A DNA stretch of 64,000 bases. Origin: Escherichia phage iGC_PHA_EC001. The stretch's first letter is position 1; each line of letters begins with the position of its first letter. The stretch lies in sequence record OR437326.1, one strand, 5' to 3'. Shown in pieces: positions 21,502 to 37,616 of this stretch. The position numbers were made by a program, and so were the translations under genes. The notes beneath the pieces are model-generated. The model was not told where the DNA came from. It searched no databases and was given only the letters and a program-made list of their open reading frames with translations.

Positions 21502-21508
21502 TAAAATA

Positions 21509-21530
21509 CCTCGCTTCGGCGGGGTTTTTT
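21509..21530 (+). terminator. intrinsic terminator after tape measure gene (UUCG tetraloop)
   Basis: CCTCGC-TTCG-GCGGGG then TTTTTT. Confidence 0.65.
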
Positions 21531-21538
21531 CGTTTCCC

Positions 21539-21568
21539 TTGACACGAAGTTTCTATATGTGTTACAAT
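21539..21568 (+). promoter_or_regulatory. sigma70-like promoter (TTGACA-N18-TACAAT)
   Basis: Immediately after terminator; precedes baseplate genes. Confidence 0.5.
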
Positions 21569-21627
21569 AATCAATATGGGAAGATCTTGCATCTTCCTTT
21601 TGGCATTATCATTACTACGAGGTTATC

Positions 21628-22329
21628 ATGGCAGCAATGACTCCACAACAGTCGGTGAGAGCCGTCTATAAGGCAGAACAGGAAATCAACTCTACCGAGA
21701 ATAAAAATACCTCGGCATCTACTGTAAAGGGTGATAATGGTTTCTGCATTTTAGCAAGTGTTTATAATAGTTCAAGTGATCAATACATTCAAAACTTTAA
21801 AGCAATTACTTTCGATTCAGTCCCTGAAATAGGTGTAACTCGTGAGGCAGATGTTACAAGTTTTCCAGTAGAATCAGGATCGGATGTAAGTGACCACGTT
21901 CAAATAAAAAACAACAGATTTAAACTTTCAGGTATAATTACCGAAACACCAATTCGGCTTATGCGAGATCAATTATACAGTGCAGGTGTAAATGGTGCAA
22001 GGATTTCTCAAGCAATAGAATATCTAGATCAAATATTTGAGTCAAGACAACCAATAGTTCTTTTGACAGAACACAGAACTTTTGAAAATGTTATCCTCAA
22101 AGGTTATTCGTATGATTATAAATCTGAATTTGCTATGCAATTTGATTTAGAGTTTGAACAAATCCGCCTCGTTTCTAAGGCCACTACTAACGCTATTGCT
22201 GTAAAAACAGCACCAAATAAGTCAACTGGTGGTGATGTGAAAGGTCAAGTTTCTTCGGATGGTCCTAAGTCAGATATTACAGTAAGAACTGGCAAAGCTA
22301 CTAATACCCCAACAAACAACGGAGGTTAA
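21628..22329 (+). CDS. hypothetical baseplate/tail protein (233 aa)
   Basis: ORF track; position after TMP. Confidence 0.4.
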   Translation: MAAMTPQQSVRAVYKAEQEINSTENKNTSASTVKGDNGFCILASVYNSSSDQYIQNFKAITFDSVPEIGVTREADVTSFPVESGSDVSDHVQIKNNRFKLSGIITETPIRLMRDQLYSAGVNGARISQAIEYLDQIFESRQPIVLLTEHRTFENVILKGYSYDYKSEFAMQFDLEFEQIRLVSKATTNAIAVKTAPNKSTGGDVKGQVSSDGPKSDITVRTGKATNTPTNNGG

Positions 22330-22331
22330 TA

Positions 22332-22745
22332 GTGACAACTTATTCTAAAACAACAAGGTCTACAAGTAACACTGGCTACAGTGCAGTTTATCTGGAGGAC
22401 CATTCTACTTATTTTGCATGGTACCTGAAAACTGAAGAGTATCCTGATCAAACATATACAGTTACATTGGATGGAGTTGATTATGACATTCGTTTAAGGT
22501 GGAACACTAGGGACGAGTCTTGGCAATGTCAGATTGGATTATCTGGAGATGATCCAAGTATAAGTTTCAAAGTTACAAATGGTTTAGATCTTCTTAAACC
22601 TTATAAATATCTTGAAAGTGTGCCAGATGGTCAATTGTATATAGTAGATACAGTCAAGATTAATGGTCGTCCTGGGTATACAACTACAGGTCGAGATAAA
22701 CGTTTTGTATTGGTTTATATTGATAACAAACCTAATCAGGCGTAA
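22332..22745 (+). CDS. hypothetical baseplate/tail protein (137 aa)
   Basis: GTG start with GGAGG upstream. Confidence 0.4.
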   Translation: MTTYSKTTRSTSNTGYSAVYLEDHSTYFAWYLKTEEYPDQTYTVTLDGVDYDIRLRWNTRDESWQCQIGLSGDDPSISFKVTNGLDLLKPYKYLESVPDGQLYIVDTVKINGRPGYTTTGRDKRFVLVYIDNKPNQA

Positions 22746-22754
22746 GGAGATAAT

Positions 22755-23765
22755 ATGGCAGAAAGAGAGTATACAAAAGCTCCTGCCCCTAATTTAAACA
22801 GGGCATACAAATTATTAATTGGTTCTGCCACAAACACAATACAGAAGAGAACTAAGAACTCGGCATTTAAATCTACAGTAGATTTGGATACCAAGTTAGG
22901 GACAACAGAAAAATCCTCTTCTAATTTGTATTTGTTGCAAGACCATCAAATAACCTTCAGTATTAAGAAAGATAATAACAAAGATCCTAACCAAGCAGAG
23001 ATTGTAGTTTATAACCTTTCGGATGATACTGTTAACTATATAAACCGTGGTATCCGAAATAACTTGGCTGTTGCTTTAGCGGTAGGATACGAAGGTGAAG
23101 AGTTGGTTATGATCTTCAAAGGAACTATCCAGTGGGTTAGTGATACTTTTGACTCGGTAGACAGGAAAACCACTTTACACTGTTTGGATGGCGGTATTAA
23201 CATTGCAGAAGCAAGAACAAGCCGCAGTTATCCAAAAGGAACTAAAATCAAACGTGTTGTGACAGATTTGGTAAAGGATTTAGGAACTACAGAAGGTAAT
23301 ATACACGTAGATAATGATCAAACCTTATCTTCAGCAACAGCTATGTGTGGAAACACTTCACATTACCTAGAACATATTTGTAAAAGTATTGATCACAATG
23401 TGTCAATACAAGATGGGTCTGTTTATGTCACTCCTCGTTCACAAATGTCTAGTGCACGTAGCGCCTATATTAGCCCTGAAACTGGTCTGATAGGAAGTCC
23501 AGAACCATTCCACAACGATATAAAACCTACTAAAAAAGTTACCAAATCCTCTAAGAAGGCAAAGAAACCTACAGATGGTGTTAAATTCAAATGCCAAATG
23601 AATGGTGCAATATTACCAGAAAAAACAATCTGGTTAAAAAGCCGAGATTATGATGGTCCATTTAAAGTAGTTTCTGTTTCTCACAACGGAGATAAAGAAG
23701 GTAAAGAGTGGGTTACTGAAGTGGAATGTGTATCCGTGTCTGAAATAATGACTAAGGAGAAATAA
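22755..23765 (+). CDS. hypothetical baseplate protein (336 aa, possible hub/gpD-like)
   Basis: Position and size only. Confidence 0.35.
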   Translation: MAEREYTKAPAPNLNRAYKLLIGSATNTIQKRTKNSAFKSTVDLDTKLGTTEKSSSNLYLLQDHQITFSIKKDNNKDPNQAEIVVYNLSDDTVNYINRGIRNNLAVALAVGYEGEELVMIFKGTIQWVSDTFDSVDRKTTLHCLDGGINIAEARTSRSYPKGTKIKRVVTDLVKDLGTTEGNIHVDNDQTLSSATAMCGNTSHYLEHICKSIDHNVSIQDGSVYVTPRSQMSSARSAYISPETGLIGSPEPFHNDIKPTKKVTKSSKKAKKPTDGVKFKCQMNGAILPEKTIWLKSRDYDGPFKVVSVSHNGDKEGKEWVTEVECVSVSEIMTKEK

Positions 23766-24499
23766 TGGATGCATTGAATTTTGTCACAGCAATGCGTGGC
23801 TTAATGACAGAACAATTAGCAGAAGTCCATACAGCCTTGCCAGTCCGTGTGACTGGCGTTAATTATGGTGCTAAAACTGTCACCTTAGAATCTATTGTTA
23901 AAAACACACGATCTAGTGAAGATGAAATAGATTATCCTACTTTTGAAGATGTTCCTTTTATGGTTAATGGTGGTGGGACAGGAAGAATCTCATTCCCTAT
24001 TAAAGCTGGCGATTTAGGAACTGTTATATTTTCTGAAAGAGATCCTTCTAATGCACTGCAAACTAGTGGAGAAACCTCTTCATCATCCACTTTTATGCAG
24101 CCTTGTGGATTATACCCTATTTGTTTTATTCCCAAAATAGCTACAGGAACAGATTCAACAGAAGCTGTAGATTCTGAAAAGGTAGTTATTTCTAATAACA
24201 AAAACACGTACGCTTCTTTCGACCCTACAGGTAATATTTCAATATGGAATAGTCAAGGGATGAAAATAGATATTACTACCTCTGGTATTACTATTACAGA
24301 TGGCACAGGGACTTTGGATCTAAAAGGTGGTAATTTAACTTTCAAAGGCGGCGTGGCAGATATCAATGGTCTTAAAATAGATCAGAACGGTTTGATGACA
24401 GATGGTAATGGCATCGGATTCCATACTCACACGCACACGGTTCGTAACATTCAGAGCGGTAGCTCAAGTGCCGAGTCCTTAAAACCAACAGGAGCCTAA
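23765..24499 (+). CDS. putative baseplate central spike (gpV-like)
   Basis: 244 aa; position before a gp25/W-like gene; Gly/Thr-rich C-terminal region compatible with a spike. Confidence 0.4.
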   Translation: MDALNFVTAMRGLMTEQLAEVHTALPVRVTGVNYGAKTVTLESIVKNTRSSEDEIDYPTFEDVPFMVNGGGTGRISFPIKAGDLGTVIFSERDPSNALQTSGETSSSSTFMQPCGLYPICFIPKIATGTDSTEAVDSEKVVISNNKNTYASFDPTGNISIWNSQGMKIDITTSGITITDGTGTLDLKGGNLTFKGGVADINGLKIDQNGLMTDGNGIGFHTHTHTVRNIQSGSSSAESLKPTGA

Positions 24500-24500
24500 C

Positions 24501-25127
24501 ATGGGAATCCCTTTTGACTTAAAACTTGGACCAAACAACGACCTCATCATGGATGATGGGGATTTGGTCCTCACTACAACCAGAACAGAAATTGCAGCAC
24601 AAACTCTTGGGATAACTCTGAACACGTATCGTGGGGAGTGGTTTTTAAATACTAACTTCGGTGTTCCTTACTTACAAGAGATTATTGGTGTTGCCAGAAA
24701 GAAAGATATTGTAGACAGAATATTTTTAGCAGAGATTGCCAAAAACGTTTACATAGATACAATAAACAGTTATAAATCTGCTTATGACATGGACCAACGT
24801 TATTATTCAATGACAGTTATGGTCACAGTTGGAGCAGATACAGTAACATCTATATTCAATACTCAACCTTCTGAAGAGTTTATTTACCCTGAAGCTGGTG
24901 AAGACAATGCAGCGATCATTTGTGAAGCTTACAGTATTGTTGAGAATTCGAATAGACTTTATCGCTTTATCAACTTTGTTGGTTTGCCACGTGATACCTA
25001 CTCTACTTGGTGGAATGAATGGTCTACAGAGTCAGCAGTGGAAAGAATCATGGTTAACGAAAAAGGTGATGCATTAGCTACAAACAATGACTTCGGTATA
25101 ACAGCTATGACAGGAGTAGAAGAGTAA
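24501..25127 (+). CDS. putative baseplate wedge protein (gp25/W-like)
   Basis: N-terminal pattern ...AAQTLGITLNTYRGEWFLNTNFGVPYLQEI resembles the gp25/GPW signature. Confidence 0.4.
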   Translation: MGIPFDLKLGPNNDLIMDDGDLVLTTTRTEIAAQTLGITLNTYRGEWFLNTNFGVPYLQEIIGVARKKDIVDRIFLAEIAKNVYIDTINSYKSAYDMDQRYYSMTVMVTVGADTVTSIFNTQPSEEFIYPEAGEDNAAIICEAYSIVENSNRLYRFINFVGLPRDTYSTWWNEWSTESAVERIMVNEKGDALATNNDFGITAMTGVEE

Positions 25128-25600
25128 TGGCAGATTTAACTACGATCAAAATTTCTGATCTTACACAAACAACCTCTGTGTCTGATACAGATTTCTTTGT
25201 AACAGATCAGGCTGGAATAACAAAGAAAACTTCTTTGAAAGTGCTGTTGAGTGGTGCAGGGGTAACTAGAAACCGTCTGAATGCACGGGGAACAGTAACT
25301 AGCACCTTGGCATTAGATATTAGTTCAGCAGAATATTTTTCTGCAACTTTATCTTCTGCAACGTGCACAATTAGTTTTACTAATATTCCAGTAGCAACAA
25401 ATGCAGTTTTAAACTTTACTTTAGCTTTGCGTCAAGGAAGTGGTGCAAATAAAGTCGTATGGCCTTCTTCTGTAAAATGGAGTTTTGGTCGTTCCCCAGT
25501 TTTGAGTTATCGTCAAGGTGCAACAGACACTTTTGAGTTTATCAGTTATGATAATGGAGCAACTTGGACAGGTAGCTTAGTTTTAGCAGGAGTTATTTAA
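25127..25600 (+). CDS. hypothetical tail protein (157 aa)
   Basis: ORF track. Confidence 0.4.
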   Translation: MADLTTIKISDLTQTTSVSDTDFFVTDQAGITKKTSLKVLLSGAGVTRNRLNARGTVTSTLALDISSAEYFSATLSSATCTISFTNIPVATNAVLNFTLALRQGSGANKVVWPSSVKWSFGRSPVLSYRQGATDTFEFISYDNGATWTGSLVLAGVI

Positions 25601-28476
25601 TGTCAAGAGTTAAGCACAATATTGACAACACGTTTCAGTTGATTGAAGGGTTGGTTCAGTTTTTGGAAAGAAATACTGGGCTTACCATAGATCCTACGGT
25701 TCAGCATTACATTATCAACCCACAAAACGTATTGGCGAACAACAGACACTTTATTAACTGGACAGCGCAGGAAGGGCAACCAAACGGTGACGCTACTACC
25801 GAAGGTCAATCTGTGCTTATCACTGGTTTTGCTTATGCATATTTGGCTACAGGGGATAAAAAATATCTTGAATCTGCCGAGAAGTATTGGCAAGCCTATA
25901 TAGATCACTTCTTCGGGGGCCAACCTATTCCTGATCCTCCAGCTAAATATCGTCCCAACTGGATCATCAATGGTAAAGAACCACGTTTAGCACATTACCC
26001 TCTCACAGATGATGGGTATCCTACGCACGGCGGGTTCAAAGGTAGCATGATGACTTGGATTAACGGAAGGACTGTTATTCCTAAAGGTGCGCCACATTGG
26101 GGAGAATACTTAGATAAAGCTTGGTTTGCTTTCAATGGTAATCTTGGTTGGAACTCTGTTAACGCAACAGTGTATGCAACTAACCCAGATGGTTCAACCA
26201 ACTGGAAAGAATATGGAGATCAGTGGGACGTTGAATGGATTATAGATCGTCTAGGACGTAAAGTTGATTGGGATGGTAATATTTTATCCACTGGGCATAG
26301 CTTTGCAGAATATGGAACAGTGCAACTTAAAAACGCTTCTGTGAACGGTGACTATAAATTCAACTACGCTACATGCAACCCTGTAGAACACGGTGGATAT
26401 CTGCTTAAGCGTAATGAGATGTGGCATAACCGTCCTGTAAACGTTCCGGTAGAGTTAGGTTATCAAGACAATGCTTCCGATGCTGAAACGTGGTGGTGTG
26501 ATGCAAACTACTTGATGTATCAGATCACAGGAGAGAGAAAATACTGGCTTTGCTGGCAATCTTCTTTATTGTTGTGTCAAGACTACTCAAACATCGATAT
26601 GTTTGATAAATTCTTCCGTAGATCTACGACAGCAATAATTCCTTTTACAGATGGTATCTCGTATGATTACTCATACCCATCTACAGCAATACCTAAATAT
26701 TCTCGTGACGAATTAGGATACACAGTAATTCGCCAAGATGTTTCAGCACAAACAACTCTAGAACAACAGGCAGTTTGGTTCAGAGTAGATCAGAATTCAA
26801 AACTGCGTATTGAGTTTCAAGGTGTAGATGATGCAGGGGAAGGTGTTCTTTTCCGTCCAGAGCTAGAATTAAGCAAAACTAAGAGTGAAACAGACACAGT
26901 GACATATCGTTGTGGCTTACCTCTTGGTGCAGCTAATATGACTAAGATGGATATACCTTTATCTAGTTTTATGCGCACCGAACCTCCTGGAGGTGGTGTA
27001 TATATTATTGCTGAACCCAGAATTATTGTTGACTGGGGAAGCAATACTGTGATACAATATAAATATGCAACTGGTATTGCTGGGACAAATAGTGATCAGA
27101 TAGTTTCTGCTAATATGGATTCAGATGGTGGTTTTACTGTTGGGTTTTGGTTAACACCAACTAAAACAGCCAATTTAAAATCTATTACGTATCGTTCATA
27201 CGCAGATGATTTTAACATCACTATTACGGATTCCGCAGGTTGGAGATGGTGGGCCATGTTAGAAAAAACAAATTCTGCATGGGTTACTAAAGCTTTAAGT
27301 CCTGCCGATTTCAAATTAAGTACTTGGCAACCTAATCACGAAGACACAGAGGCAAAACCTTCGTCAATAAACCTGACTGCTGTTGATCAGATCAATATTG
27401 CATTGGATTCTGAACCTGCAAATGGCTTGACAGGGGCAATCGACTTTTATTGCGTTAACGATATCCCATCTTTGTATTCTTCAGCCGCTGGCGATGATTA
27501 CACAATGTATTTCAGGGTTACAGTTTCATCTGAAAATCCTTATACAGCAAAACTTGGAGATTGTACAATACTGGACTACAAACTTGACAGTTTGAATTAT
27601 ACTCCAGGAATCATTCCATTTTCCAATATTAGTGATCCTAACACAGCATTATATGACGGTTGGCGTGGTATTCCTTACCCAGGTTATCAATACCCATCCT
27701 TATATTGTTTTAAAGGGAGAGATATTGACTGGGTTCGTATGAACAACAGTATAGACTTTTTATATGATTCACAAATGTGGTTTTATAATAAGTTTGCCCC
27801 TGTAATGCCTGGGCCAATGGCACAAGCTTATGTTTGGGATCGTTGGGATGCTCATAAATATGGAAACAAAAATGAGTTCACAATGTATCATTGGAACGAT
27901 AAAGCTTGGGATGGTTATGAAGCACGAGCATTCTTCTGTGCGTGTCATACGGTATACGAACTAAAGCGACGAGGAGCCGAAGTTCCTGAAAAACTTTTAA
28001 CAGTTTGTAAAAACTGGATCAACTACCTGAAGTGGTTCCAAGATAACAACGAAGGAAGAACACCAACAATATTTTATCCCAACGGAGAAGTGGCTGCGCC
28101 TGTAGATGACTTTACAAGTCACATGTCTGCGCTCTTTATGGCGGGATGTGCTATAATGGGGATGGCTGGATATGATTCAGAAATTCCTAACATTAAAATA
28201 GTAGCAGACCGCTGTTTTGAACTTATTCAGGAAAACTATATTGTTCTTGGTCCTAATCACGTTATGAATGGTTGTTGGAGTGCTGCTCCTAGACCAGACA
28301 GTGATAACGGAGTCTTCTTTGGCTTCCACGCTGGAGAGTTGTTACGTGGTTTTGGGTTGTATGCTTTATACAAAAAACTTAATCCCCAAAATGCATTACC
28401 TGTTTTGGATTCGAGCAATATTCCTGCACTTACTGTTTTGACAATGGCAAACATTAGTGTGGACGTTACCGAGTAA
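25600..28476 (+). CDS. large Trp/Tyr-rich tail-associated protein (958 aa), possibly carbohydrate-active
   Basis: Composition and size only; lies between baseplate W-like and J-like genes; no motif assigned. Confidence 0.35.
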   Translation: MSRVKHNIDNTFQLIEGLVQFLERNTGLTIDPTVQHYIINPQNVLANNRHFINWTAQEGQPNGDATTEGQSVLITGFAYAYLATGDKKYLESAEKYWQAYIDHFFGGQPIPDPPAKYRPNWIINGKEPRLAHYPLTDDGYPTHGGFKGSMMTWINGRTVIPKGAPHWGEYLDKAWFAFNGNLGWNSVNATVYATNPDGSTNWKEYGDQWDVEWIIDRLGRKVDWDGNILSTGHSFAEYGTVQLKNASVNGDYKFNYATCNPVEHGGYLLKRNEMWHNRPVNVPVELGYQDNASDAETWWCDANYLMYQITGERKYWLCWQSSLLLCQDYSNIDMFDKFFRRSTTAIIPFTDGISYDYSYPSTAIPKYSRDELGYTVIRQDVSAQTTLEQQAVWFRVDQNSKLRIEFQGVDDAGEGVLFRPELELSKTKSETDTVTYRCGLPLGAANMTKMDIPLSSFMRTEPPGGGVYIIAEPRIIVDWGSNTVIQYKYATGIAGTNSDQIVSANMDSDGGFTVGFWLTPTKTANLKSITYRSYADDFNITITDSAGWRWWAMLEKTNSAWVTKALSPADFKLSTWQPNHEDTEAKPSSINLTAVDQINIALDSEPANGLTGAIDFYCVNDIPSLYSSAAGDDYTMYFRVTVSSENPYTAKLGDCTILDYKLDSLNYTPGIIPFSNISDPNTALYDGWRGIPYPGYQYPSLYCFKGRDIDWVRMNNSIDFLYDSQMWFYNKFAPVMPGPMAQAYVWDRWDAHKYGNKNEFTMYHWNDKAWDGYEARAFFCACHTVYELKRRGAEVPEKLLTVCKNWINYLKWFQDNNEGRTPTIFYPNGEVAAPVDDFTSHMSALFMAGCAIMGMAGYDSEIPNIKIVADRCFELIQENYIVLGPNHVMNGCWSAAPRPDSDNGVFFGFHAGELLRGFGLYALYKKLNPQNALPVLDSSNIPALTVLTMANISVDVTE

Positions 28477-28484
28477 GGGGTAAA

Positions 28485-30638
28485 ATGAAACAAGCTATAT
28501 TTACTGTCACGCGAGACAAGAGAGTAAATGCGAGTTCATTTAACTACACGACTGTTGACGGAACAGCAGTCGCTGGTAGAGATTATATTGCAAAATCGGG
28601 AACACTTGTGTTCCCTGATGATGCTGATTCTGCTACTATTGTGGTTGAAGTATTTGAACGACCAAAGAACTCAATAGATCTTAACTTCTCCCTCCAAGTT
28701 TCAGGGATTAGTCAAAATAACATGATGGTTGAAACAACCATCAATTGTATTATAACTACTATCCAAGAAAATACTACTCCAATAACTTGGACTACAAAAG
28801 ACGTTAAAATGTTCTCTCCTATGTATTGGACAATAGATTCTCAAGCAACGGAAAGTTGTTCTATTGTATCTCATGGAGGCTCTTTTACTGCAAGATTTGT
28901 AAACAGAACAACAGCAGGTTTGGCAGGGGTTATCTGGAGCACAGTTGACAAATATGACCATAAAGGTGTTGGGTATTTACCCCACACAGATTTAAGTTCA
29001 GAGAAACTTTGGTTTAAAATGGAAATTAGTCAAAACATGCCAGGTTTTAAAGAAGAACCTTTGGTGCCGACTTTGACTGTAACTCTCCTGGATAAAAGTG
29101 TTCATTATGTCAGTTTAGGATTCTATGCTTCAGATATTTCAGAAGATGGTAAAACAGCCACAATCAAGCTAGATTTTGGTAATATCTTTTCTGGCCCTAA
29201 TAATGATATTCCTTTGGATATGAGTGCCGTAGACAATATTTTCTTCTCTTTGATTACAGCAAGGTATGAAGAAATAGAGGAGATTGTACCTATTGATAGT
29301 CAAGAGGCTTGGTTTACTTTCACTCTTCTTGAACCTACTTCTGGTTACAGTATGATGAAAGTCAGCAACCTTGTCCAGCCTGAACATGATATTCGCATGT
29401 GCACATCTTATGATGATATGTATAACCTGACTCCAGAGAGAGTTATTTATAATACATATGCACTAGGTTATCGTGGGATGATTAACCATTATAACGGAAT
29501 GTCTCACTATTATGAGTTCTCATGGAATGGAACATCTTGGGCTTTAAATAAATCTGTTTTCCTGAATCCGGCTACAGAAGCTTGGCTTAACAGCTTCCAT
29601 TCTATAGCAAACGAGAAGGGCTACACAATAATGAACTCTTTAAGTTTTGAATTGATGAGCACAGTTTGTCCTGTAGAATGGGTCCAGCATGATTGGAACG
29701 ATGCTCTTGCAGCAACAGGGTATAAACCTCCTAGTTATGTGTTGTCTCCAACTATTGACGAAGGTATGGAATATTTGCAAAATGTTATTAATAAAATAGC
29801 ATCTATTTCGCAAGCTAATAATATTCCAGTTGTCATTCAAATTGGTGAGCCTTGGTGGTGGTATAATACAGCAAGTAAAATGCCTTGCATATATGATTAC
29901 ACTACCAAACTGGCATTCAACACAGAAACAGGTTTATTTGCACAAGATGCAGGAACAATAGATAATTATAAAACAGGAACGCCGTTTGACGAATACTATG
30001 CATTTTTGTCTCGTAAACTAGGATTAAGAGTTACAAAGTTTGCAACAGACACTAGAGCAACCTATCCAGGAGCTAAAGTAACATTGCTTCCGTTCTTACC
30101 GTCAATTATTGGCAACGGTTTGATGGAGAAAGTTAACTTTCCGTCTGATTACTACATTCCTGAAACTTTTGATTTTTACTGTTCAGAGTGTTACGACTGG
30201 CTTCTGGAAGGTAAAATGATGAAAGCATTCGATGCAATTACCATACCACATGAAAAATTAGGTTTTGAATATTCTGATATTCACTATCTTTCGGGTTTTG
30301 TTCCAGATGCTACTCTTGCACCTTTGTATGGCTTCGATCCTGAATCAAACTACCGCACGTATCTTTGGAAAATGATTATAGGTAATATAGTGTTGAACGC
30401 CAATAAGTTCAATGGGCTTACACAATATATATGGGCCTATCCTCAAATAATGCATGATTCCATCACGGTAGTTAATTCTCAATCCCAAGTTTTCTATATG
30501 GGTAATGTGCCTTTGAATTGTTATTTGCAAGATATCACTCTTAAACAAGCAAATGTTGAGATTGCTACCATAAGTGGAATTACATTAGCTACTAAATCTG
30601 GAGAAGATTTAGTAACAACACAAAAATTTTATATATAG
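28485..30638 (+). CDS. large tail-associated protein (717 aa), function unknown
   Basis: ORF track; strong RBS; same inserted block. Confidence 0.35.
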   Translation: MKQAIFTVTRDKRVNASSFNYTTVDGTAVAGRDYIAKSGTLVFPDDADSATIVVEVFERPKNSIDLNFSLQVSGISQNNMMVETTINCIITTIQENTTPITWTTKDVKMFSPMYWTIDSQATESCSIVSHGGSFTARFVNRTTAGLAGVIWSTVDKYDHKGVGYLPHTDLSSEKLWFKMEISQNMPGFKEEPLVPTLTVTLLDKSVHYVSLGFYASDISEDGKTATIKLDFGNIFSGPNNDIPLDMSAVDNIFFSLITARYEEIEEIVPIDSQEAWFTFTLLEPTSGYSMMKVSNLVQPEHDIRMCTSYDDMYNLTPERVIYNTYALGYRGMINHYNGMSHYYEFSWNGTSWALNKSVFLNPATEAWLNSFHSIANEKGYTIMNSLSFELMSTVCPVEWVQHDWNDALAATGYKPPSYVLSPTIDEGMEYLQNVINKIASISQANNIPVVIQIGEPWWWYNTASKMPCIYDYTTKLAFNTETGLFAQDAGTIDNYKTGTPFDEYYAFLSRKLGLRVTKFATDTRATYPGAKVTLLPFLPSIIGNGLMEKVNFPSDYYIPETFDFYCSECYDWLLEGKMMKAFDAITIPHEKLGFEYSDIHYLSGFVPDATLAPLYGFDPESNYRTYLWKMIIGNIVLNANKFNGLTQYIWAYPQIMHDSITVVNSQSQVFYMGNVPLNCYLQDITLKQANVEIATISGITLATKSGEDLVTTQKFYI

Positions 30639-30646
30639 GAGTAAAA

Positions 30647-32878
30647 ATGTCAACTACAATTACTAATTTACCCGAAACATCAAAAGTTAATGATTCTGAT
30701 TACCTGGTTTTAGACCAACCTGATAAGACTGTTAAAAGCACAGTTTCCAACTTTCTTACTGACACTGGGGTGGTTTTAGCCACCCAGTTGAAAGATACAG
30801 ATGGAGCAGATTTAATACAATCCTCAAATGGTAATACTGTTCAGGAAGAGTTGAATAACAATCTTCTTAATGATCGTGAACAGTGGCGTCGTAGTCTTGC
30901 CGAGGCTGGGTTAACTCTTGTTGATGGTAGTTTTGAAGAAGGGGCTACAGTGGGCAGTGTAACTGATGCTGTCTGGTACATAGCGGGTGCTCAGTGCTAC
31001 ACATGGGGGTCTGGTTTCCCTAAAGATGTACCACCTAAATCAACCCCGACATCAACCGGTGGAGTAGGTGTAGGGGCGTGGATATCAGTTGGGGATGCAT
31101 CGCTGCGCAGCCAGCTACACAGCCCATCGCTACCAGGAACATCGCTAATCAAACACTCTGACGGCAAGACTGTTCAGCAGGAACTCAACAGCATTCTTTC
31201 CGTCCATTCGCGCGTTTTCAGCGTTGATGACCCGCAGTTTGCTGGCGGTGCAAAAGGTGACAGCAACGGCACGGCAGGTAATGGTACAGACGATACGGCA
31301 GCTATTTATGCTTGCTTCCAGGCTGCAATTGCTGCTGGTGGTGGGAAGATTGTCTTCTCCCCTGGTAAGATATATCGGACGACATACACCGTCTTATACG
31401 GCAGCAACATGGTTATCGATATGCAGGGAGCGTCAATTTTCTTTGATGTCAAGCCGAATGACGGCTCTGTGTTCATGCCAGACTCCTTCCAGTCTTACAC
31501 CAAATTCACGACCGATGTGATTTTTATGAACGGCCAGATTAACGGCAGAACCGGTGCCGGTAACGGTATCGGTGCTAACCGTGCTCGCCGCCTCACATTG
31601 TTTAACATTGGTAGTAAATATCTACATTGGCACCTGTTTGACGGTGCTGGCGCACAGCAGGTTAAAATCATTAATTGCTGGTGTGAGGGGACTAACTCTA
31701 CTCCTTTCCAGGTTGATAACGCCACTTATGATAAGGCATCGTGGGGTATAGACGCATCGGGAAATGTACTTCCCATATCATTCGACGCAACAGGGGTCGG
31801 AGGATGGTCTAACTGTCGTGACGTGCTGATTATGGGATGCACTGTAAGGAATGCCCTTTATTCATGTGTGCATATTCATAATACCAATAACCAAAATATT
31901 CAGGTTATTAACTGTCATTTTGAAAATTCTAAGGCAGGTGTCTTTGCAGATAACAACGCAACATTTATAACCACTAATACATTAATTCAGGGGTGTACCT
32001 TCATAAGATGTACTAATCCTATCAGTTGGAGTGGTGGTTTTAATGTACTGCGTATTCTGGATAACAACTTCTACGGGGAAAACAATACTACCTGGTATTA
32101 CGGTATTCGCATCCTCTTAGCTGCTGCCGGTACTTTGAAAACACTAGCAATTAAAGGTAATACCTTCACTGGATTGTACCGACCTATCATCGTTAATGGT
32201 GTACTTGGGTTTGCGGTTGACGATAACGTATTTCAAACATGTGGCGGGACAACACCACCTTCGTCAGGCGGTGTCATTACCGCTGAAAACCCGTTGTCCA
32301 TAGTTCGTCTGTCCGGGTGCAAAAGTGGCACAGCAGCAAATAACGTGTTCCAGGATTGCAATGACCCAGTATGTATATCTGTGGCAAGGGACCAAGTAGA
32401 TTCGTCATACTCTTCGTCTGTAGAAGTTAATGGGAACATCTCCCGTGCTTCTGGATGCTTGTTGTCGCTACACTATGCGGACCGTTGCACGGCAAGAGAC
32501 AACAAATACATTGGCTTGGCAACAGACTTCTACGGCATCTACGTTGGTGAGACATCCTTAGCTTGTGTTATTGATGGGTTCTATTGCTCGCAGGGTAGCG
32601 GTCAGGCTGTGCATGTCAATGGTGGCCCCCGTCACGTAGTCCGAGATGTTGTGGCTTTCGGGACTGACACCACAAAGGCAGCAATTGTCTTCCACAACAC
32701 CAACACTGCAAGGTCTATGGACAATGTGGTAATGGGGGGTTACTTGTCTTCTGGATACATCTTGTTATCCGGTACTACCGTGAACTACGTTGGTGATGAA
32801 CCAAACATGACTATTGCCAAGCAAGATACGGCAACAGGCGTGAAGGTTGTCTACACGAAAGCGGCAGTGCAAAACTAA
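30647..32878 (+). CDS. tailspike / depolymerase with pectate-lyase-like beta-helix
   Basis: Motif GDSNGTAGNGTDDTAAIYACFQAAIAAGGGKIVFSPGKIY matches the pectate-lyase-3-type start of a right-handed beta-helix; N-terminal region shares a motif with fibre gene 40732. Confidence 0.55.
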   Translation: MSTTITNLPETSKVNDSDYLVLDQPDKTVKSTVSNFLTDTGVVLATQLKDTDGADLIQSSNGNTVQEELNNNLLNDREQWRRSLAEAGLTLVDGSFEEGATVGSVTDAVWYIAGAQCYTWGSGFPKDVPPKSTPTSTGGVGVGAWISVGDASLRSQLHSPSLPGTSLIKHSDGKTVQQELNSILSVHSRVFSVDDPQFAGGAKGDSNGTAGNGTDDTAAIYACFQAAIAAGGGKIVFSPGKIYRTTYTVLYGSNMVIDMQGASIFFDVKPNDGSVFMPDSFQSYTKFTTDVIFMNGQINGRTGAGNGIGANRARRLTLFNIGSKYLHWHLFDGAGAQQVKIINCWCEGTNSTPFQVDNATYDKASWGIDASGNVLPISFDATGVGGWSNCRDVLIMGCTVRNALYSCVHIHNTNNQNIQVINCHFENSKAGVFADNNATFITTNTLIQGCTFIRCTNPISWSGGFNVLRILDNNFYGENNTTWYYGIRILLAAAGTLKTLAIKGNTFTGLYRPIIVNGVLGFAVDDNVFQTCGGTTPPSSGGVITAENPLSIVRLSGCKSGTAANNVFQDCNDPVCISVARDQVDSSYSSSVEVNGNISRASGCLLSLHYADRCTARDNKYIGLATDFYGIYVGETSLACVIDGFYCSQGSGQAVHVNGGPRHVVRDVVAFGTDTTKAAIVFHNTNTARSMDNVVMGGYLSSGYILLSGTTVNYVGDEPNMTIAKQDTATGVKVVYTKAAVQN

Positions 32879-32938
32879 GGAGCACCCAGCCATTTACATT
32901 GATTGATGAAAGCGCCAACTGCTGTCACTATTGATAAG

Positions 32939-32963
32939 CACCCCGCTCCGGCGGGGTGTTTTA
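32939..32963 (+). terminator. intrinsic terminator after tailspike gene
   Basis: CACCCCGC-TCCG-GCGGGGTG followed by TTTTAAAA. Confidence 0.6.
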
Positions 32964-32987
32964 AAACTACAACATGAGGACTAACCC

Positions 32988-33293
32988 ATGAATAAGATGT
33001 TCACACAGCCCACTGGCCCAGTGGCTAAACAGGTTAATAAACAAGCCATTGCCCGTAAGTTTGGTGTTAAGCAGAATGAAGTAGTCTACTTTGCTGTAGG
33101 TGCTGTACTAAGTGGATATAAGATTATCTATGATAAGGAGACGCAAAGGGCGTATTCCCTACCTGCTGATATTGCCCCAGGTACTACTGCCATTAGTCTT
33201 AGTGCTACTGTACTTGTGCATTCAGCGGGTTCTGTAGACCTTGGGGAATTAGCTGTATATCGTGATTTAAAAAGTAATGAGAACGCACTATGA
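32988..33293 (+). CDS. small protein paralogous to an internal module of tailspike 37617..40670
   Basis: About 70 residues align with residues ~228-300 of the 1017-aa protein (IARKFG...SVDLGELAV vs IARKYG...SVDLSALAV). Confidence 0.45.
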   Translation: MNKMFTQPTGPVAKQVNKQAIARKFGVKQNEVVYFAVGAVLSGYKIIYDKETQRAYSLPADIAPGTTAISLSATVLVHSAGSVDLGELAVYRDLKSNENAL

Positions 33294-33532
33294 GAAAATT
33301 TTTAATAGGTATGTTCTGTACATATCCTGATAATAAAGTCAGTTCTACGAAAGTCTGGAACGCTGTAGGCATGTCGGTTATGACAGGCATGTTTATCTTT
33401 TTAGGAATAGAAAAAGAAATTCCTGAATGGATGGGTTGGGCTTTTGTTTTCATGATAACTCCTTCTCGCCTCATGAAAAATCTTATTGATTTACGCTGGG
33501 GCAGATCACAATCTACCAAAGAGGATGACTAA
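33290..33532 (+). CDS. putative holin (class II-like, two transmembrane segments)
   Basis: 80 aa with two hydrophobic stretches and a charged C-terminal tail (KNLIDLRWGRSQSTKEDD). Confidence 0.35.
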   Translation: MRKFLIGMFCTYPDNKVSSTKVWNAVGMSVMTGMFIFLGIEKEIPEWMGWAFVFMITPSRLMKNLIDLRWGRSQSTKEDD

Positions 33533-35019
33533 TGGACGAATATGGTTTGACAGATGCGGGATTTGTAATCCCGACTTTTGACGATGTTTTAAACAACTAC
33601 ATGACAGCAGTAAAAAACACATTTGGTGCAGATGCAGCCACTTCGGAAGATACTGTAATCGGACAACTGTTTAGAATAATTGCATACACAGATTACACAT
33701 TGTGGGAAGGTATGCAAGGTGTTTATAATACTCAAACACTAGATGGTGCAGAAGGTATTTATCTTGACGAAATCTTTTCTAAACGCGGTTTCTATCGAGC
33801 AGGGGCAGCAGCAAGTACAGGTTATGCCTATGTTAAGAGTAATAACAAAGCAGCTTGGACTTATGAGCTAGGCACGGATATTTACTTCAACTCTGATAGT
33901 GATATGAACTACTATGTTAGCACACCGACTATGTTGAATGCTAAGATTGCAGCTTATCAAATCTCTCGTGCTAATGCAACTGCTACAGGTGTTCCAAATA
34001 TTACTTTTTATGCACAAAGTGCGGTAGATGGAGGACTAAACAGTAAAACACTTGCACCTGGTTCTTCTACATTTATAACCGATCTTGAAACTTTTATCAA
34101 GGCAAATTTAACAGAAGCTGATCGTAGTCTTGTATTTTCTGATTCAGGTAACTTATCAATTGGTTTTACTTCTTTAACTAGTGATACTCCAGTGGGACTG
34201 GTAACTCCTATTAAATTTTATGCTAGTGTTCCGGTTGGAACCAAGTGGAGTGAGATTCCGGTAGTTGCAGCAGAGAAAGGATACAACCCTGTTGGCGTGG
34301 AGTCTATTACAGGGATATCTTCTACCTTTACAGGTTATCTTGACAGTGGTAACTTTTATTCATTTTCTCCTGGTCGGGATGTTGAGACAGACGCAGAATT
34401 CCGCTCTCGTTTCAATGACAACGTTGATGAAGCTAACGCAGGGACACGAGCAGCTATTGTGAAAGCTCTGCTACTTACAGATGGTGTTACTAAGGTGAAG
34501 ATTTATGATAACCCTACATTACATGATCAAGAACATGCTCCAGCTATGACTTTCCAGACTATAGTTTATGGTGGCAGTGCAGAAGAAATTGCAAATGTTA
34601 TCTATAAAACCAAACCAATCAACACTTTGACACATGGAACAACCAACATAACTGTTACAACAGAAGACGGAGGACAAGAAATTATTCGCTTCTCCCCTGG
34701 TGCTTCTGCTATGTATTCTGTAAAACTTGTTTATCAAACTGTCAACGGAACAACTTTAAGTGGAACAGAAAAACAAAACATCGTAGAAGCTTTACAAAAC
34801 CTGCAAGCTTACTTTGAATTAGGTTCTTCAGTAACGAACGATCAAATCAAAGGTGTTATTTATGCAGCACTTGCTTTTGGACGCTTGACTTCTCTTCGTG
34901 TTTATGTTAAACTTAATACTGAGGATGACAGTAAATATACAGAGAATAATATAGTTCCTGCTTATAATGTTGTCCCTTCTTTTGACCTTGATAACATTTC
35001 TTACGAGTATGGAGTGTAA
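33532..35019 (+). CDS. putative baseplate J-like protein
   Basis: 495 aa followed by a gpI-sized gene and tail fibre genes (P2-like J-I-H-G order). Confidence 0.4.
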   Translation: MDEYGLTDAGFVIPTFDDVLNNYMTAVKNTFGADAATSEDTVIGQLFRIIAYTDYTLWEGMQGVYNTQTLDGAEGIYLDEIFSKRGFYRAGAAASTGYAYVKSNNKAAWTYELGTDIYFNSDSDMNYYVSTPTMLNAKIAAYQISRANATATGVPNITFYAQSAVDGGLNSKTLAPGSSTFITDLETFIKANLTEADRSLVFSDSGNLSIGFTSLTSDTPVGLVTPIKFYASVPVGTKWSEIPVVAAEKGYNPVGVESITGISSTFTGYLDSGNFYSFSPGRDVETDAEFRSRFNDNVDEANAGTRAAIVKALLLTDGVTKVKIYDNPTLHDQEHAPAMTFQTIVYGGSAEEIANVIYKTKPINTLTHGTTNITVTTEDGGQEIIRFSPGASAMYSVKLVYQTVNGTTLSGTEKQNIVEALQNLQAYFELGSSVTNDQIKGVIYAALAFGRLTSLRVYVKLNTEDDSKYTENNIVPAYNVVPSFDLDNISYEYGV

Positions 35020-35021
35020 AA

Positions 35022-35651
35022 ATGGCAGTGAGTGTTGACCATGTAACAACTTGGGCCAGTATCAATGAAGACGTTAAAAACCTTCTGATTGAAGATTTTA
35101 AATCTTCTCCTAACATTGTCAAGCTCCTCTACATCGTATCCAGTGAAAAGCAAAAGATAGATCAGGCAATGATCTATCTTGCTAAACACCGCTTGATCTC
35201 TACAGCTACAGGCAAATACCTAGATATTCTAGGGGAAGAAATGGGGATCGAACGTAATGGCTCTGATGATGAAGAGTATAGAACAATATTAAAAATCAGG
35301 GCTTACCGCGTAGCCTCATCGGGGACTCGTGGTGACATAATTGATATCTTCGCCCGTTTCACAGGAACAGAACGTGAAACGCTTAATACTTACGTAGGTT
35401 TGAATAAAACCTTTGATGTGTTTTTCTACAACCTGTGTCTTCAATCTGATCAAGCTTTAGAGCAGTTGCTAAGTGTTTTCCCTATTATTAGTAGCTACCG
35501 TCTTGGAGCAAAAGCAGGATCAGCTTTTGGTTTTAGTTCTTATTATGCTACCAAACCGCCTCATGGTATTGGTGGTTTAGGTTCCCTGTACATGGAATCT
35601 ACTGGGGATGAAACAGGACGCATGTGTACGCTTCTCAAGCAAATAGATTAA
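35022..35651 (+). CDS. putative baseplate protein (gpI-like)
   Basis: 209 aa directly after J-like gene. Confidence 0.4.
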   Translation: MAVSVDHVTTWASINEDVKNLLIEDFKSSPNIVKLLYIVSSEKQKIDQAMIYLAKHRLISTATGKYLDILGEEMGIERNGSDDEEYRTILKIRAYRVASSGTRGDIIDIFARFTGTERETLNTYVGLNKTFDVFFYNLCLQSDQALEQLLSVFPIISSYRLGAKAGSAFGFSSYYATKPPHGIGGLGSLYMESTGDETGRMCTLLKQID

Positions 35652-35660
35652 GGAGTTTAA

Positions 35661-36722
35661 ATGGCGAAGCCAATATATTATCCTGACTGGGCTACACAAA
35701 CTGTAACGCTCCCAGGAACTTTAAACACAAACAAAATTAGACCTAAAGAAACCATCCGCACAATTGGTATGGATTATGGTCAAATCATGACTTGCGAAGA
35801 GATGAACTGGATTCTTAATAATATCGGTTTATGGATTCGCTATTTGGTGGATGATTTTCTTCCAACTTTACCTAATACCTACTTGCCTTTAGTGGGAACT
35901 AAGATTACAATGGCAGGTGATGCTACTGGTGAGGCCACTTGGAACGGTAACAAAGAAGTTACTTTATCTATCCAAGTTCAAGATAACAGTCATAATCACT
36001 TGTCAGCAAACATTACAGATGCTACTAGTTCAACAGTAACACCAAACGTGTTGGTAAAACGTGATGCGGGTGGTGCTATTTATGGTGGTGATGTTTATGT
36101 TAACGGTACTTCCACAACAGATCCTGCAACACTGTTCTTCAAAAACTTTGCAGGACAAACAAATGGTGAGATTTCTGCCGAATACCAAAGTGGAGGTCAG
36201 CTTTATATTTATCGTAGAAATCCTAGCACAGGTAGTGTATCAGCAGGTGTTCGTTTATATGATGCAGGTTATGTTCTAATAGACAGTCCAAGATCAAACA
36301 GTGGACAAGATACTTCTAACGGAAATGCTTTAGTTCGCTTAGATTATCTGAATTCTCGTTTGACTTCTCTTCAGAACACATTGCAGACGAATATTAACAC
36401 TGTTCAAAACAACCTGAATAGTGTTAACAGCAACCTCTCTTCCCGTATAAACAATGTAGAAAGTAATCATCAAAATCAGATTACAAATAACTACAATTAT
36501 GCTAACGGAACATTTGTAAGAGATATTCGTTATACTAGCCAAGGTGTGTATTATCCACCAGGGAACGAGGTTTCTTGGACTTATATCTGTTCTTCTGGTT
36601 ATGTTCTTTCTGGTATTATTGTACAGGAAACAGGACGTAGCTCTGCGGATAACATCGGTGGGGTTTACTTCAAACGCCTCCAGCGCAACGTTAACGGAAA
36701 CTGGTACGATATTGGAGGCTAA
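35661..36722 (+). CDS. putative tail fibre protein
   Basis: 353 aa with Asn/Ser/Thr-rich heptad-like segment (NSRLTSLQNTLQTNINTVQNNLNSVNSNLSSRINNVESN). Confidence 0.45.
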   Translation: MAKPIYYPDWATQTVTLPGTLNTNKIRPKETIRTIGMDYGQIMTCEEMNWILNNIGLWIRYLVDDFLPTLPNTYLPLVGTKITMAGDATGEATWNGNKEVTLSIQVQDNSHNHLSANITDATSSTVTPNVLVKRDAGGAIYGGDVYVNGTSTTDPATLFFKNFAGQTNGEISAEYQSGGQLYIYRRNPSTGSVSAGVRLYDAGYVLIDSPRSNSGQDTSNGNALVRLDYLNSRLTSLQNTLQTNINTVQNNLNSVNSNLSSRINNVESNHQNQITNNYNYANGTFVRDIRYTSQGVYYPPGNEVSWTYICSSGYVLSGIIVQETGRSSADNIGGVYFKRLQRNVNGNWYDIGG

Positions 36723-37268
36723 ATGATATTTACAAACTTTAAAAAATATATTCCTGAAGATCCTGAACTAAAAGAATTGGTAGAAGCAAAGAACATTCTT
36801 TTTCTTCGTTGCGATCAAGGTTACGATTGGTATGATTTACGTAGCACAGAATTCAATAACGATAAAATGAAAGTCGTTTTTGATGATCAAAATCGTATTG
36901 TGTTTTGGAATACTGATCCTACACTACTTTGCCCTGAAGATCTTTCTATAGCACAAGTAGACTTTAATATAGATACTTTTGAGGATATTAGGAATAAGGT
37001 TCTGGATTTAGAAACCTTAACTCTTAAGGATAAAGAGTATTCCCGTGAAGAGTTGATGACACAAGCTAGTGCAAAAATTCGCTCTTTACAAGAAACAGCG
37101 GTAGCACTTATAACACCTTTACAGTATGCTAAAGATTTAGAAATGGCTACTGAAGACGAATTAGCTTATCTTAAAAATCTTCAAGTTTATGTGGTTAAAC
37201 TAAATCGTGTTCCGCTTCAAAAAGATTATCCTTACACTATAGATTGGCCTACATTACCGACGGAATAA
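36723..37268 (+). CDS. putative tail fibre assembly protein
   Basis: 181 aa directly downstream of fibre gene (ATGA overlap). Confidence 0.35.
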   Translation: MIFTNFKKYIPEDPELKELVEAKNILFLRCDQGYDWYDLRSTEFNNDKMKVVFDDQNRIVFWNTDPTLLCPEDLSIAQVDFNIDTFEDIRNKVLDLETLTLKDKEYSREELMTQASAKIRSLQETAVALITPLQYAKDLEMATEDELAYLKNLQVYVVKLNRVPLQKDYPYTIDWPTLPTE

Positions 37269-37277
37269 GGGATCACT

Positions 37278-37613
37278 ATGGAATTTCAAGAAGCATGGGG
37301 ACTTGCAAAGGATGCAATAATCCCTTTAATCGGAGTCATCTGGTTCTTTTTCAAACAAAAAATGGATAAATTCGGCTCTGATCTTGAGGAAATGGAGGAG
37401 AAAAGTCGAGAGCTAGAGAAGAAGTTGGTCTTTGTTGAATCAACTTATGCAACTAAAGCCGAACTTACCCAGATGCTAAATCAAATTAACTCTACATTAA
37501 TGGCAAATAATAACACCCTTGAGCAAAAAATTGAAAAGATTATGGACCTCAAGAATGCGACTATCCAAATGATGCTAGATGACATAGTTAAACGTACACA
37601 GAATAAGGGGTAA
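37278..37613 (+). CDS. small membrane-anchored coiled-coil protein (111 aa)
   Basis: N-terminal hydrophobic helix AIIPLIGVIWFFF followed by charged helical region. Confidence 0.4.
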   Translation: MEFQEAWGLAKDAIIPLIGVIWFFFKQKMDKFGSDLEEMEEKSRELEKKLVFVESTYATKAELTQMLNQINSTLMANNNTLEQKIEKIMDLKNATIQMMLDDIVKRTQNKG

Positions 37614-37616
37614 TTA

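Follow-up and report, generated by a model that had tools for sequence, protein, structure and literature searches.

A Conserved, Probable Host Adsorption Module with an Exchanged Tailspike Domain in the Baseplate Operon of Escherichia Phage iGC_PHA_EC001

Here, we report on a block of genes at positions 25127 to 33532 of a 64,000-nucleotide (nt) stretch (the window) of sequence record OR437326.1, from Escherichia phage iGC_PHA_EC001, where six open reading frames (ORFs) separate the baseplate genes W and J. An original prediction, made from the letters of the sequence, had described this block as an inserted cargo of receptor-binding or glycan-degrading genes within a P2-like baseplate cassette. 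Homologs were sought in a phage collection of 50,697 records and in further sets named below.

Gene layout

All genes described are on the plus strand. The left context of the block is the central baseplate spike gene (23765 to 24499), P2 V-like and orthologous to the phi92 spike gp138 (72.5% identity), with Pfam matches PF18352 and PF21930 (phi92-spike-family N-terminal domain, E = 8e-11; beta-helical domain, E = 8.5e-32). The last baseplate gene ahead of the block (24501 to 25127; phrog_120, phrog_4233) encodes a gp25/W-like sheath initiator with 73% identity to its ortholog phi92 gp139, which was modeled as the sheath initiator from cryo-electron microscopy (cryo-EM) (PMC13450770). At the right border lies the J-like baseplate wedge gene (33532 to 35019; PF04865, Baseplate_J; phi92 gp145 ortholog), followed by the I-like wedge gene (35022 to 35651; DUF2612, phrog_4056; phi92 gp146 ortholog). 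Pfam and phrog matches bear out the V-, W-, J-, and I-like calls made originally.

Between these borders are genes for a 157-amino-acid (aa) short fiber or adaptor (25127 to 25600; phrog_9017), a 958-aa protein modeled as an (alpha/alpha)6 barrel (25600 to 28476), a 717-aa protein (28485 to 30638; PF03160, PF23844, and PF23845; ortholog of phi92 gp142 and rV5 gp34), a modular 743-aa beta-helix tailspike (30647 to 32878), a 101-aa orphan ORF termed module A (32988 to 33293; phrog_7992), and an 80-aa small membrane protein (33290 to 33532; phrog_1322). An ORF check of the window confirmed all six on the predicted strand and coordinates. One-base overlaps (TAATG) join the W, 157-aa, and 958-aa genes; the 958/717 and 717/743 junctions are 8 nt each, with ribosome-binding sites; and overlaps link the last genes as well, with the 80-aa gene starting inside the 101-aa ORF and stopping over the J start. 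The sole sizeable spacer in the block, 109 nt located 3' of the tailspike gene, contains a GC-rich hairpin (32939 to 32958, plus strand) with an 8-bp stem, followed by TTTT (CACCCCGC-TCCG-GCGGGGTG TTTT). The ORFs are long, have strong homologs, and are tightly packed or overlapping, which marks them as real genes as opposed to chance ORFs.

Relatives and published precedent

Positions 21000 to 41000 are 97 to 98% identical over 87 to 90% of their length to many Phapecoctavirus genomes (Ro121c4YLVW, SKA64, and phAPEC8; Stephanstirmvirinae), and the uncovered ~10% in those comparisons is one segment. At least 80% of the same interval is covered by 65 phage records, mostly at 95 to 99% identity. 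Judged by this similarity, the source phage is a phAPEC8-like Phapecoctavirus.

The same gene order (spike, sheath initiator, short fiber, ~958-aa protein, ~717-aa protein, tailspike, small membrane protein, J, and I) is found in the annotated genomes of phi92, VEcB, phAPEC8, and Ro121c4YLVW. By tblastn, the genes correspond one to one with those of phi92, at amino acid identities of 83% (157 aa, gp140), 83% (958 aa, gp141), 76% (717 aa, gp142), 81% (80 aa, gp144), 80% (J, gp145), and 87% (I, gp146); for gp140, gp141, gp142, and gp144, the identity spans the full length of each protein. The tailspike corresponds through its N-terminal anchor (residues 1 to 54; 30647 to 30808), which is conserved across Stephanstirmvirinae and 94% identical to the N terminus of phi92 gp143 and likewise to that of the VEcB tailspike (tblastn). 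The phAPEC8 counterpart genes are gp098 to gp094. The synteny comparison that the original prediction had proposed as its check thus went against it: phAPEC8 (gp098 to gp094), phi92 (gp140 to gp144), VEcB, and Ro121c4YLVW carry the same genes at the same position, and "inserted cargo" of this phage does not describe the block taken as a whole.

The closest precedents differ from it in detail. In phi92 (Justusliebigvirus), gp140 to gp144 lie in identical order between the spike/sheath initiator genes and the J/I wedge genes, but the tailspike is gp143, an endosialidase of 918 aa that bears a C-terminal chaperone domain, whereas the distal part here is an unrelated beta-helix, and phi92 is without the 101-aa ORF and the hairpin-containing spacer. 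The 157-, 958-, and 717-aa proteins are 95 to 100% identical to those of phAPEC8, Ro121c4YLVW, SKA64, anhysbys, ukendt, and ZCKP1; a 101/102-aa ORF is also found in Ro121c4YLVW, anhysbys, ukendt, and ZCKP1, whereas phAPEC8 has no such ORF and carries a 921-aa putative endosialidase. Further afield, the 157/958 pair follows W also in Seunavirus 4MG and in rV5, and Phapecoctavirus, Justusliebigvirus, Seunavirus, and rV5 share the arrangement spike, W, 157 aa, 958 aa, variable receptor-binding genes, J, and I.

The locus has been described in the literature from several sides. A review table that draws on Schwarzer et al. (2012, J Virol 86:10384) names phi92 Gp141 and Gp142 as glycosidases, Gp143 as an endosialidase, Gp150 as a colanidase tailspike, and Gp151 as a fiber of the multivalent adsorption apparatus (PMC5380687). 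The 2021 BASEL study reported large orthologous lateral-fiber loci in all Vequintavirinae and relatives, most of the locus being conserved and rich in glycan-binding or glycan-hydrolyzing domains (PMC8594841). In the 2026 cryo-EM study of phi92, the ordered baseplate was built from gp134 to gp139, gp145, and gp146 only; the fibers appeared as flexible low-resolution density, in which gp147 was assigned to fiber III and gp143 to the tip of the L-shaped fiber I, while the arm of fiber I and fiber II were left unidentified and gp141 and gp142 were unmentioned (PMC13450770). The block is a known feature of this phage group (phi92 gp140 to gp144; the BASEL lateral-fiber locus) and part of the published "Swiss-army-knife" adsorption apparatus.

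We are confident, short of certainty, that this block forms the proximal, conserved half of the lateral-fiber/tailspike module, serving host adsorption, of a phAPEC8/phi92-type myovirus and that it is expressed in the late baseplate operon. The finding mainly confirms that broad-host-range phages of the phi92/phAPEC8 type carry several glycan-acting fibers and spikes inside the baseplate operon. Its new content is modest: the exact location of the recombination joints, an assigned fold for the 958-aa family, the strict linkage of the adaptor to the 958-aa family, and an assembly order derived from fusions.

Several GenBank records labeled "Campylobacter phage" (C3, B15, A112b, and A13b; host Campylobacter jejuni) were, over this region, 74 to 95% identical to E. 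coli Stephanstirmvirinae or Vequintavirinae. Their host labels look doubtful, and coliphage contamination may be the explanation.

Adaptor linkage and natural fusions

The 157-aa protein has two parts, an N-terminal anchor motif of ~45 aa that is lineage specific and a C-terminal domain of ~100 aa that is conserved and accompanies the 958-aa family. A motif is common to the N termini of the 157-aa protein and the tailspike. The C-terminal domain lies directly upstream of a 958-aa homolog in all eight phage lineages fetched, among them rV5, 4MG, and Felix-O1-like, Rosemountvirus, T7-like (ISAO8), and Vibrio phages, as well as in an SU10-like podovirus contig and in 69 of the 75 IMG/VR loci with enough upstream sequence, at a spacing of 0 to 62 nt. 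Homologs of W, J, or the hub were near the 958-aa homolog in only 8 of 80 IMG/VR loci. The partner's N-terminal domain swaps with the backbone, being a T7 tail-fiber N-domain in ISAO8, where the adaptor/958 pair fills the single fiber slot, and Tail_spike_N in rV5 gp43.

Natural fusions extend the series on both sides of the 958-aa unit. In a P2-like prophage (P0087), the N-domain of gpI is fused to the N terminus of the 958-aa homolog, and the small partner is missing. In an SU10-like podovirus contig (P0100), a segment like residues 108 to 689 of the 717-aa protein (51% identity) is fused to the C terminus of the 958-aa homolog, and the other long variants of 958-aa homologs all extend C-terminally. 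Taken with the gene order, these fusions indicate that the assembly order is probably adaptor (157 aa), then 958 aa, then 717 aa.

Some details of these loci were noted in passing. The prophage fusion lies on ENA contig NODE_33 (L099, 4599 to 11294) after tail X, holin, lysozyme, gpR, V, W, and J; it is a 1,097-aa protein with a Tail_P2_I N-domain and a 958-aa-family unit that apparently replaces the usual gpI C terminus, and the contig ends 48 nt later. The SU10-like contig (Logan SRR10874396; L098, 5931 to 11364), which carries SU10-type capsid and adaptor genes, encodes a 255-aa coiled-coil protein with the C-terminal domain of the 157-aa protein, followed by the 1,557-aa 958+717 fusion. 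In homologs of ~1,600 aa (P0089 to P0107), the 958-aa unit is N-terminal and is followed by a C-terminal extension of ~650 aa ending in Gly_rich_2 (PF21722), another distal module on the 958-aa platform. Just upstream of the adaptor/958 pair of SB18, a 502-aa protein (L007, 8272 to 9780; phrog_23426) resembles a mini-paralog, with a partial copy of the 958-aa beta-sandwich (aa 384 to 623, 31% identity) behind an adaptor-like N terminus.

Comparable adaptors are known from the podoviruses K1E, K1-5, and SP6, from Kuttervirus CBA120, and from G7C, in which large glycan-degrading proteins are mounted on a small adaptor that has a tail-attachment N-domain, and modular tailspikes have exchangeable N-terminal docking modules. 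The cargo of the 157-aa adaptor differs in being a presumably monomeric (alpha/alpha)6-barrel protein and not a trimeric beta-helix, and no T4 gp10-like branching domains were detected in the block, unlike in branched tailspike complexes.

An alternative is that the 157-aa protein is an independent short fiber with its own receptor-binding knob, the 958-aa protein being attached elsewhere or acting as a chaperone or soluble enzyme, so that adjacency would reflect co-regulation. The C-terminal domain does also terminate long fiber families (phrog_3904, positions 997 to 1080; phrog_7760), and the phi92 authors described gp140 as fiber-like and similar to the Pa223 head spike (PMC13450770). We nevertheless consider this arrangement unlikely: the close adjacency is near universal across unrelated backbones; in ISAO8, it is the small protein that bears the T7 tail-attachment domain, while the 930-aa protein is without a recognizable anchor; and where the small protein is missing, as in the P2-like prophage, the 958-aa unit has a fused anchor domain instead.

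The 958- and 717-aa proteins

The structural model of the 958-aa protein is an (alpha/alpha)6 toroid of the glycoside hydrolase (GH)-like type, interrupted by beta-sandwich insertions at residues ~122 to 276 and ~353 to 660 and ending in a disordered tail (residues 928 to 958). No Pfam family matched the sequence at E ≤ 0.01, hence no curated GH family is assigned to it by sequence, and no PDB sequence matched at the same threshold. It differs from GH8, GH76, and GH88/GH105 (clan GH-M/GH-like) in its low sequence identity to them (9 to 14%), in matching no Pfam entry, and in the beta domains that interrupt the barrel. Full-length homologs occur in 533 phage records whose backbones differ widely: rV5-like, PVP-SE1-like, and Felix-O1-like phages, Rosemountvirus, jumbo Salmonella and Vibrio phages, and T7-like podoviruses. 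Such homologs also occur in many enterobacterial and Pseudomonas genomes. The family is widespread in phages and in many prophages, yet it is without a curated family or a solved structure. Over 40 homologs (42 to 83% identity), ~100 columns are invariant, including the acidic residues D64 (motif GDATTEGQ, in which E68 is nearly invariant) and D294/E296 (motif NAADAExW), and both motifs are at the N-terminal ends of barrel helices in the model. Catalysis by the 958-aa protein is plausible on this model.

The 717-aa protein has three Pfam domains, Calx-beta (PF03160, residues 4 to 82), NCTSP_N (PF23844, residues 107 to 292; 57.5 bits), and TIM-barrel_NCTSP (PF23845, residues 299 to 658; 265.2 bits against a cutoff of 27, E = 1.1e-78). 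Its barrel is homologous to N4 Gp64 (PDB 9LC0/9YF4; 9lc0_M, E = 1.8e-30, residues 361 to 606 against 114 to 367), a virion component that forms the small subunit of the gp64-gp65 noncontractile sheath (PMC13434306). The two systems differ: N4 is a podovirus in which gp64 is paired with the 1,382-aa gp65 around the tail tube, whereas here Calx-beta and NCTSP_N precede the barrel and the protein would sit on a myovirus baseplate. A stretch of 76 residues (269 to 344) resembles gp65 residues 343 to 416, but a full homolog of gp65, the large sheath subunit, was not found, so a gp64-gp65-type heterodimer does not apply here. The natural fusion partner of the 717-aa family is the 958-aa family.

BASEL had already aligned N4 Gp64 with the conserved lateral fiber of Vequintavirinae-type phages (PMC8594841), and N4 and Vequintavirinae-type phages alike require wecB and the N4 glycan receptor (NGR) (PMC8594841; PMC11990801). 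Because of this shared dependence, the 717-aa protein is the best candidate for the conserved-glycan step; its likely target, which it would bind or process, is the wecB-dependent NGR/enterobacterial common antigen (ECA), also needed by N4. As had been proposed, receptor-binding and glycan-acting proteins are indeed encoded here: one with a glycosidase-type (alpha/alpha)6 fold, one with an N4 gp64-type TIM barrel, and a beta-helix tailspike.

Instead of acting on glycans, the 958- and 717-aa proteins could be nonenzymatic, rigid wedge parts like the peripheral T4 proteins gp6, gp7, and gp10, with enzyme-like folds exapted as scaffolds. Both are at least 95 to 99% identical in most Phapecoctavirus records, unlike typical receptor-binding tips; N4 gp64 was described as a structural "sheath" subunit (PMC13434306); the 958-aa protein falls in no curated GH family by sequence; and one of its homologs is fused to a gpI wedge domain. 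The chance of this being correct seems to us small, slightly smaller even than that of an independent short fiber. The ordered phi92 baseplate contains neither protein, its fibers being seen as flexible density; the fiber slot of the T7-like ISAO8 holds no candidate receptor-binding protein other than the pair; the invariant columns of the 958-aa family include the acidic motifs at barrel-helix starts; and N4 and these phages need the same wecB-dependent glycan (PMC8594841, PMC11990801).

Proposed assembly

If the block is the proximal half of a lateral-fiber/tailspike module, the 157-aa adaptor, presumably a trimer, would anchor through its N terminus at the periphery of the J/I wedge, and its conserved C-terminal domain would hold the N-terminal side of the 958-aa protein. 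The 958-aa protein would in turn carry the 717-aa protein on its C-terminal side, with the disordered tail of the former and the Calx-beta region of the latter as candidate interfaces. The tailspike would dock on or beside this arm via its conserved 54-residue N terminus. In such an assembly, the conserved 958- and 717-aa proteins may bind or process conserved envelope glycans, and the exchangeable tailspike tip would recognize and cleave a strain-specific O- or K-antigen. The proposal appears to fit the arm of the L-shaped fiber I and fiber II that were left unassigned in phi92, and the linkage and natural fusions offer a testable assignment for those densities in the 2026 cryo-EM study.

Several points weigh against this proposal. 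The contacts among the 157-, 958-, and 717-aa proteins and their positions in the virion are read indirectly, from adjacency and fusions. In rV5, the 717-aa homolog (gp34) lies after the I gene, apart from the 958-aa homolog, and in the region of 4MG examined, there was no 717-aa homolog; a partnership of the 958- and 717-aa proteins is therefore optional. In phi92, gp140 could not be fitted by the authors into the density of fiber II (PMC13450770), and the 2026 N4 paper gives reversible binding of NGR to gp66, not gp64 (PMC13434306).

More tentatively, and with somewhat less than even confidence, we propose that the C-terminal domain of the 157-aa protein and the 958-aa protein form an ancient and portable receptor-binding cassette of two genes with interchangeable anchors (on myovirus baseplates, on T7-like and SU10-like podovirus tails, and in P2-like prophages), that the gp140-gp141-gp142 chain is the arm of fiber I and/or fiber II, and that the 101-aa ORF is maybe a docking stub.

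The exchanged tailspike domain

Behind its conserved anchor, the 743-aa tailspike has a linker and a TSP1/gp66-type N-terminal domain termed module B (30809 to 31132), which is present in a subset of relatives; the domain is included in residues ~58 to 187, with PF18668 (Tail_spike_N) at aa 93 to 150, and the PDB sequence matches of the protein are to tailspike N-domains. Residues ~163 to 743 form a right-handed beta-helix in an AlphaFold2 (AF2) model (predicted local distance difference test [pLDDT] score, 81), for which Foldseek gave a probability of 1.0 to PfbA and to the CBA120 TSP3, HK620, and Sf6 tailspikes. Model and Foldseek thus agree with the beta-helix that the original prediction had read from a motif, and the protein has the docking module and right-handed parallel beta-helix of P22/HK620/Sf6/CBA120-type tailspikes. 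The distal domain had no direct Pfam match even at E ≤ 5; its homologs match NosD/Beta_helix.

Nucleotide homology to the relatives breaks off inside this gene at one of two places, 30796 to 30817 (phAPEC8, phi92, VEcB, anhysbys, and ALITA) or ~31101 (Ro121c4YLVW, PaulScherrer, ZCKP1, and ukendt), and resumes at 32928 to 33295, depending on the phage. The segment from 31133 to 32880, a recently exchanged receptor-binding and putative depolymerase domain, had no nucleotide match in the phage collection, and no phage record covered more than 38% of 30600 to 33600. The GC content is 0.45 to 0.53 over 30800 to 31800 and 0.47 to 0.50 over 32200 to 33000, against a background of 0.39.

A close source of the distal domain was not found in the phage collection, where tblastn gave a single match (28% identity), and 4 of 5,426 complete E. 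coli genomes had a match (71% identity over 41% of the query). The closest relatives came from a large metagenome protein set: one of 94% identity on a siphovirus-like contig, one of 91% in a protein with a T7 tail-fiber N-domain, and two E. coli proteins of 77% and 58%. The siphovirus-like contig (L013) is 88.9% identical at the nucleotide level over exactly 31133 to 32880, that is, from the start of the distal module to the stop codon. This is an ordinary modular exchange of a tailspike receptor-binding domain, and it is the only part of the block to which "cargo" applies.

The downstream hairpin would have been acquired along with this segment, and possibly the 101-aa ORF too. The hairpin is a possible terminator that came with the tailspike module; it fell under the T-run threshold of the terminator scan. 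Host-range differences among near-identical Phapecoctavirus isolates map to this one exchangeable cassette with clean recombination joints, which is useful for engineering phage therapy candidates.

The W-J gap and the question of insertion

W and J are split apart by the block, as the original prediction had observed, and they adjoin in P2-like prophages and Felix-O1-like phages. "Inserted cargo" stands for the tailspike segment at 31133 to 32880 and fails for the rest of the block: from 25127 to ~30800, the genes are present in all relatives, the GC content is at a background of 0.37 to 0.41, and repeats are absent, so that only 31133 to 32880 has the marks of a recent island. A search of 24000 to 35500 for direct or inverted repeats marking an insertion gave only chance-level matches of 16 to 22 nt. 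A scan for internal promoters and terminators gave no signals in excess of expectation that would mark an independent unit, promoter-like sites numbering 47 against 48 expected from shuffles; the only convincing transcription signals are upstream of the block, at 21508 to 21568, between the tape-measure and baseplate genes.

At a deeper level, the picture differs. One genuine P2-like prophage has the order V-W-J-I, and in the Felix-O1-like SB18, a W-type gene (phrog_120) abuts J and I while the 157/958 cassette lies downstream of the fiber genes. Given this adjacency, an old insertion or relocation is plausible, and an insertion may be placed at a deep evolutionary level. The size of the gap varies, from ~5.7 kb in 4MG (the 157/958 pair and a colanidase-like spike) to 8.4 kb here (the 157/958 pair, the 717-aa gene, the tailspike, the 101-aa ORF, and the 80-aa gene) and ~12.7 kb in rV5 (the 157/958 pair, a 1,272-aa fiber, and four siphovirus-like tail-tip genes, gp40 to gp37, with the 717-aa homolog gp34 after I). 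From these comparisons, the W-J gap evidently behaves as a slot for receptor-binding genes whose content varies by genus, and the block represents an ancient, fixed feature shared by two subfamilies, as opposed to strain cargo.

An island of horizontally inserted cargo that spans all 8.4 kb of the block, is specific to this phage or a few strains, and breaks an intact baseplate cassette is highly improbable, and synteny already refutes it for the block as a whole. In its favor, W and J are neighbors in P2-like prophages and Felix-O1-like phages, the 157/958 cassette is clearly mobile among unrelated phage backbones, and the GC content climbs to ~0.5 inside 30800 to 33200. Against it, every Stephanstirmvirinae genome examined has the same genes at the same position, the 157/958 pair is in Vequintavirinae too, the 65 records cover the interval mostly at high identity, the GC content is at background up to ~30800 without flanking repeats, and the block overlaps W and J at start and stop codons.

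Around the gap, three side observations were made. The rV5 gap (L005, 12300 to 17707) holds a siphovirus tip module nested within a myovirus baseplate operon, with gp40 to gp38 annotated as similar to Yersinia phage PY54 and gp37 as a 1,279-aa "central tail fiber J." Upstream of the present block, a terminator-like hairpin (21508 to 21525) stands immediately before the region's best promoter-like site (TTGACA-18-TACAAT, with TG upstream), both lying between the tape-measure gene and the first baseplate gene, and phAPEC8 has an annotated terminator at the place equivalent to 21508 to 21568. The sign of the GC skew flips near 45 kb (cumulative maximum, 44 to 45 kb) and near 3 kb, in agreement with the change from the rightward structural operon to genes transcribed leftward.

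Small open reading frames

The 101-aa ORF corresponds to the first ~93 residues of Kuttervirus/Gamaleyavirus tailspikes (62 to 74% identity) and matches phrog_7992 positions 328 to 420 (E = 1.5e-52); tblastn matches to it were found in 478 phage records. The original reading of this ORF as a paralog of a tailspike module holds, for it is 45% identical to residues 226 to 302 of a 1,017-aa colanidase-like protein encoded at 37617 to 40670. Five relatives, which span both of the subfamily's genera, have it intact (six genomes with the window) and ending alike at the C terminus (…DLKSNENAL/P), whereas it is 5' truncated in ALITA and absent from phAPEC8, phi92, and VEcB. Copies of the 101/102-aa ORF are at 18186 to 18494 (L001), 4976 to 5281 (L011), 4062 to 4370 (L012), 3501 to 3809 (L015 and L016), and 3480 to 3671 (L017). 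Its N-terminal 20 residues are mosaic, with two variants, and the ratio of nonsynonymous to synonymous substitution rates (dN/dS) is 0.12 to 0.33 for diverged pairs.

The ORF is either a docking stub that was retained or a scar left by a tandem-tailspike donor and preserved intact through recombination. The truncation in ALITA and the absence from several phages would accord with a scar, and a semblance of purifying selection could arise by gene conversion from full-length tailspikes. A plain decaying scar was considered and is not clearly supported, given six intact copies and the dN/dS values above.

The colanidase-like protein carries both N-modules, A and B, internally (aa ~207 to 369; phrog_7992 positions 345 to 487), preceded by a 200-residue N-terminal region common to rV5 gp28-type fibers. 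This internal placement suggests branched or stacked attachment.

The 80-aa ORF had been called holin-like. It does encode a small membrane protein (phrog_1322, "membrane protein"), with one clear hydrophobic helix at aa 22 to 40, but the holin label is unsupported, and its neighborhood is without a lysis gene. It is 81 to 85% identical to its phi92 and VEcB counterparts. Homologs of the phi92 gp144 family occur elsewhere in the fiber cluster of rV5 (gp29; L005, 25196 to 25462) and 4MG (gp040; L004, 21644 to 21913), and the family always lies inside the tail-fiber cluster, before J here and before the gp28-type fiber gene in rV5 and 4MG.

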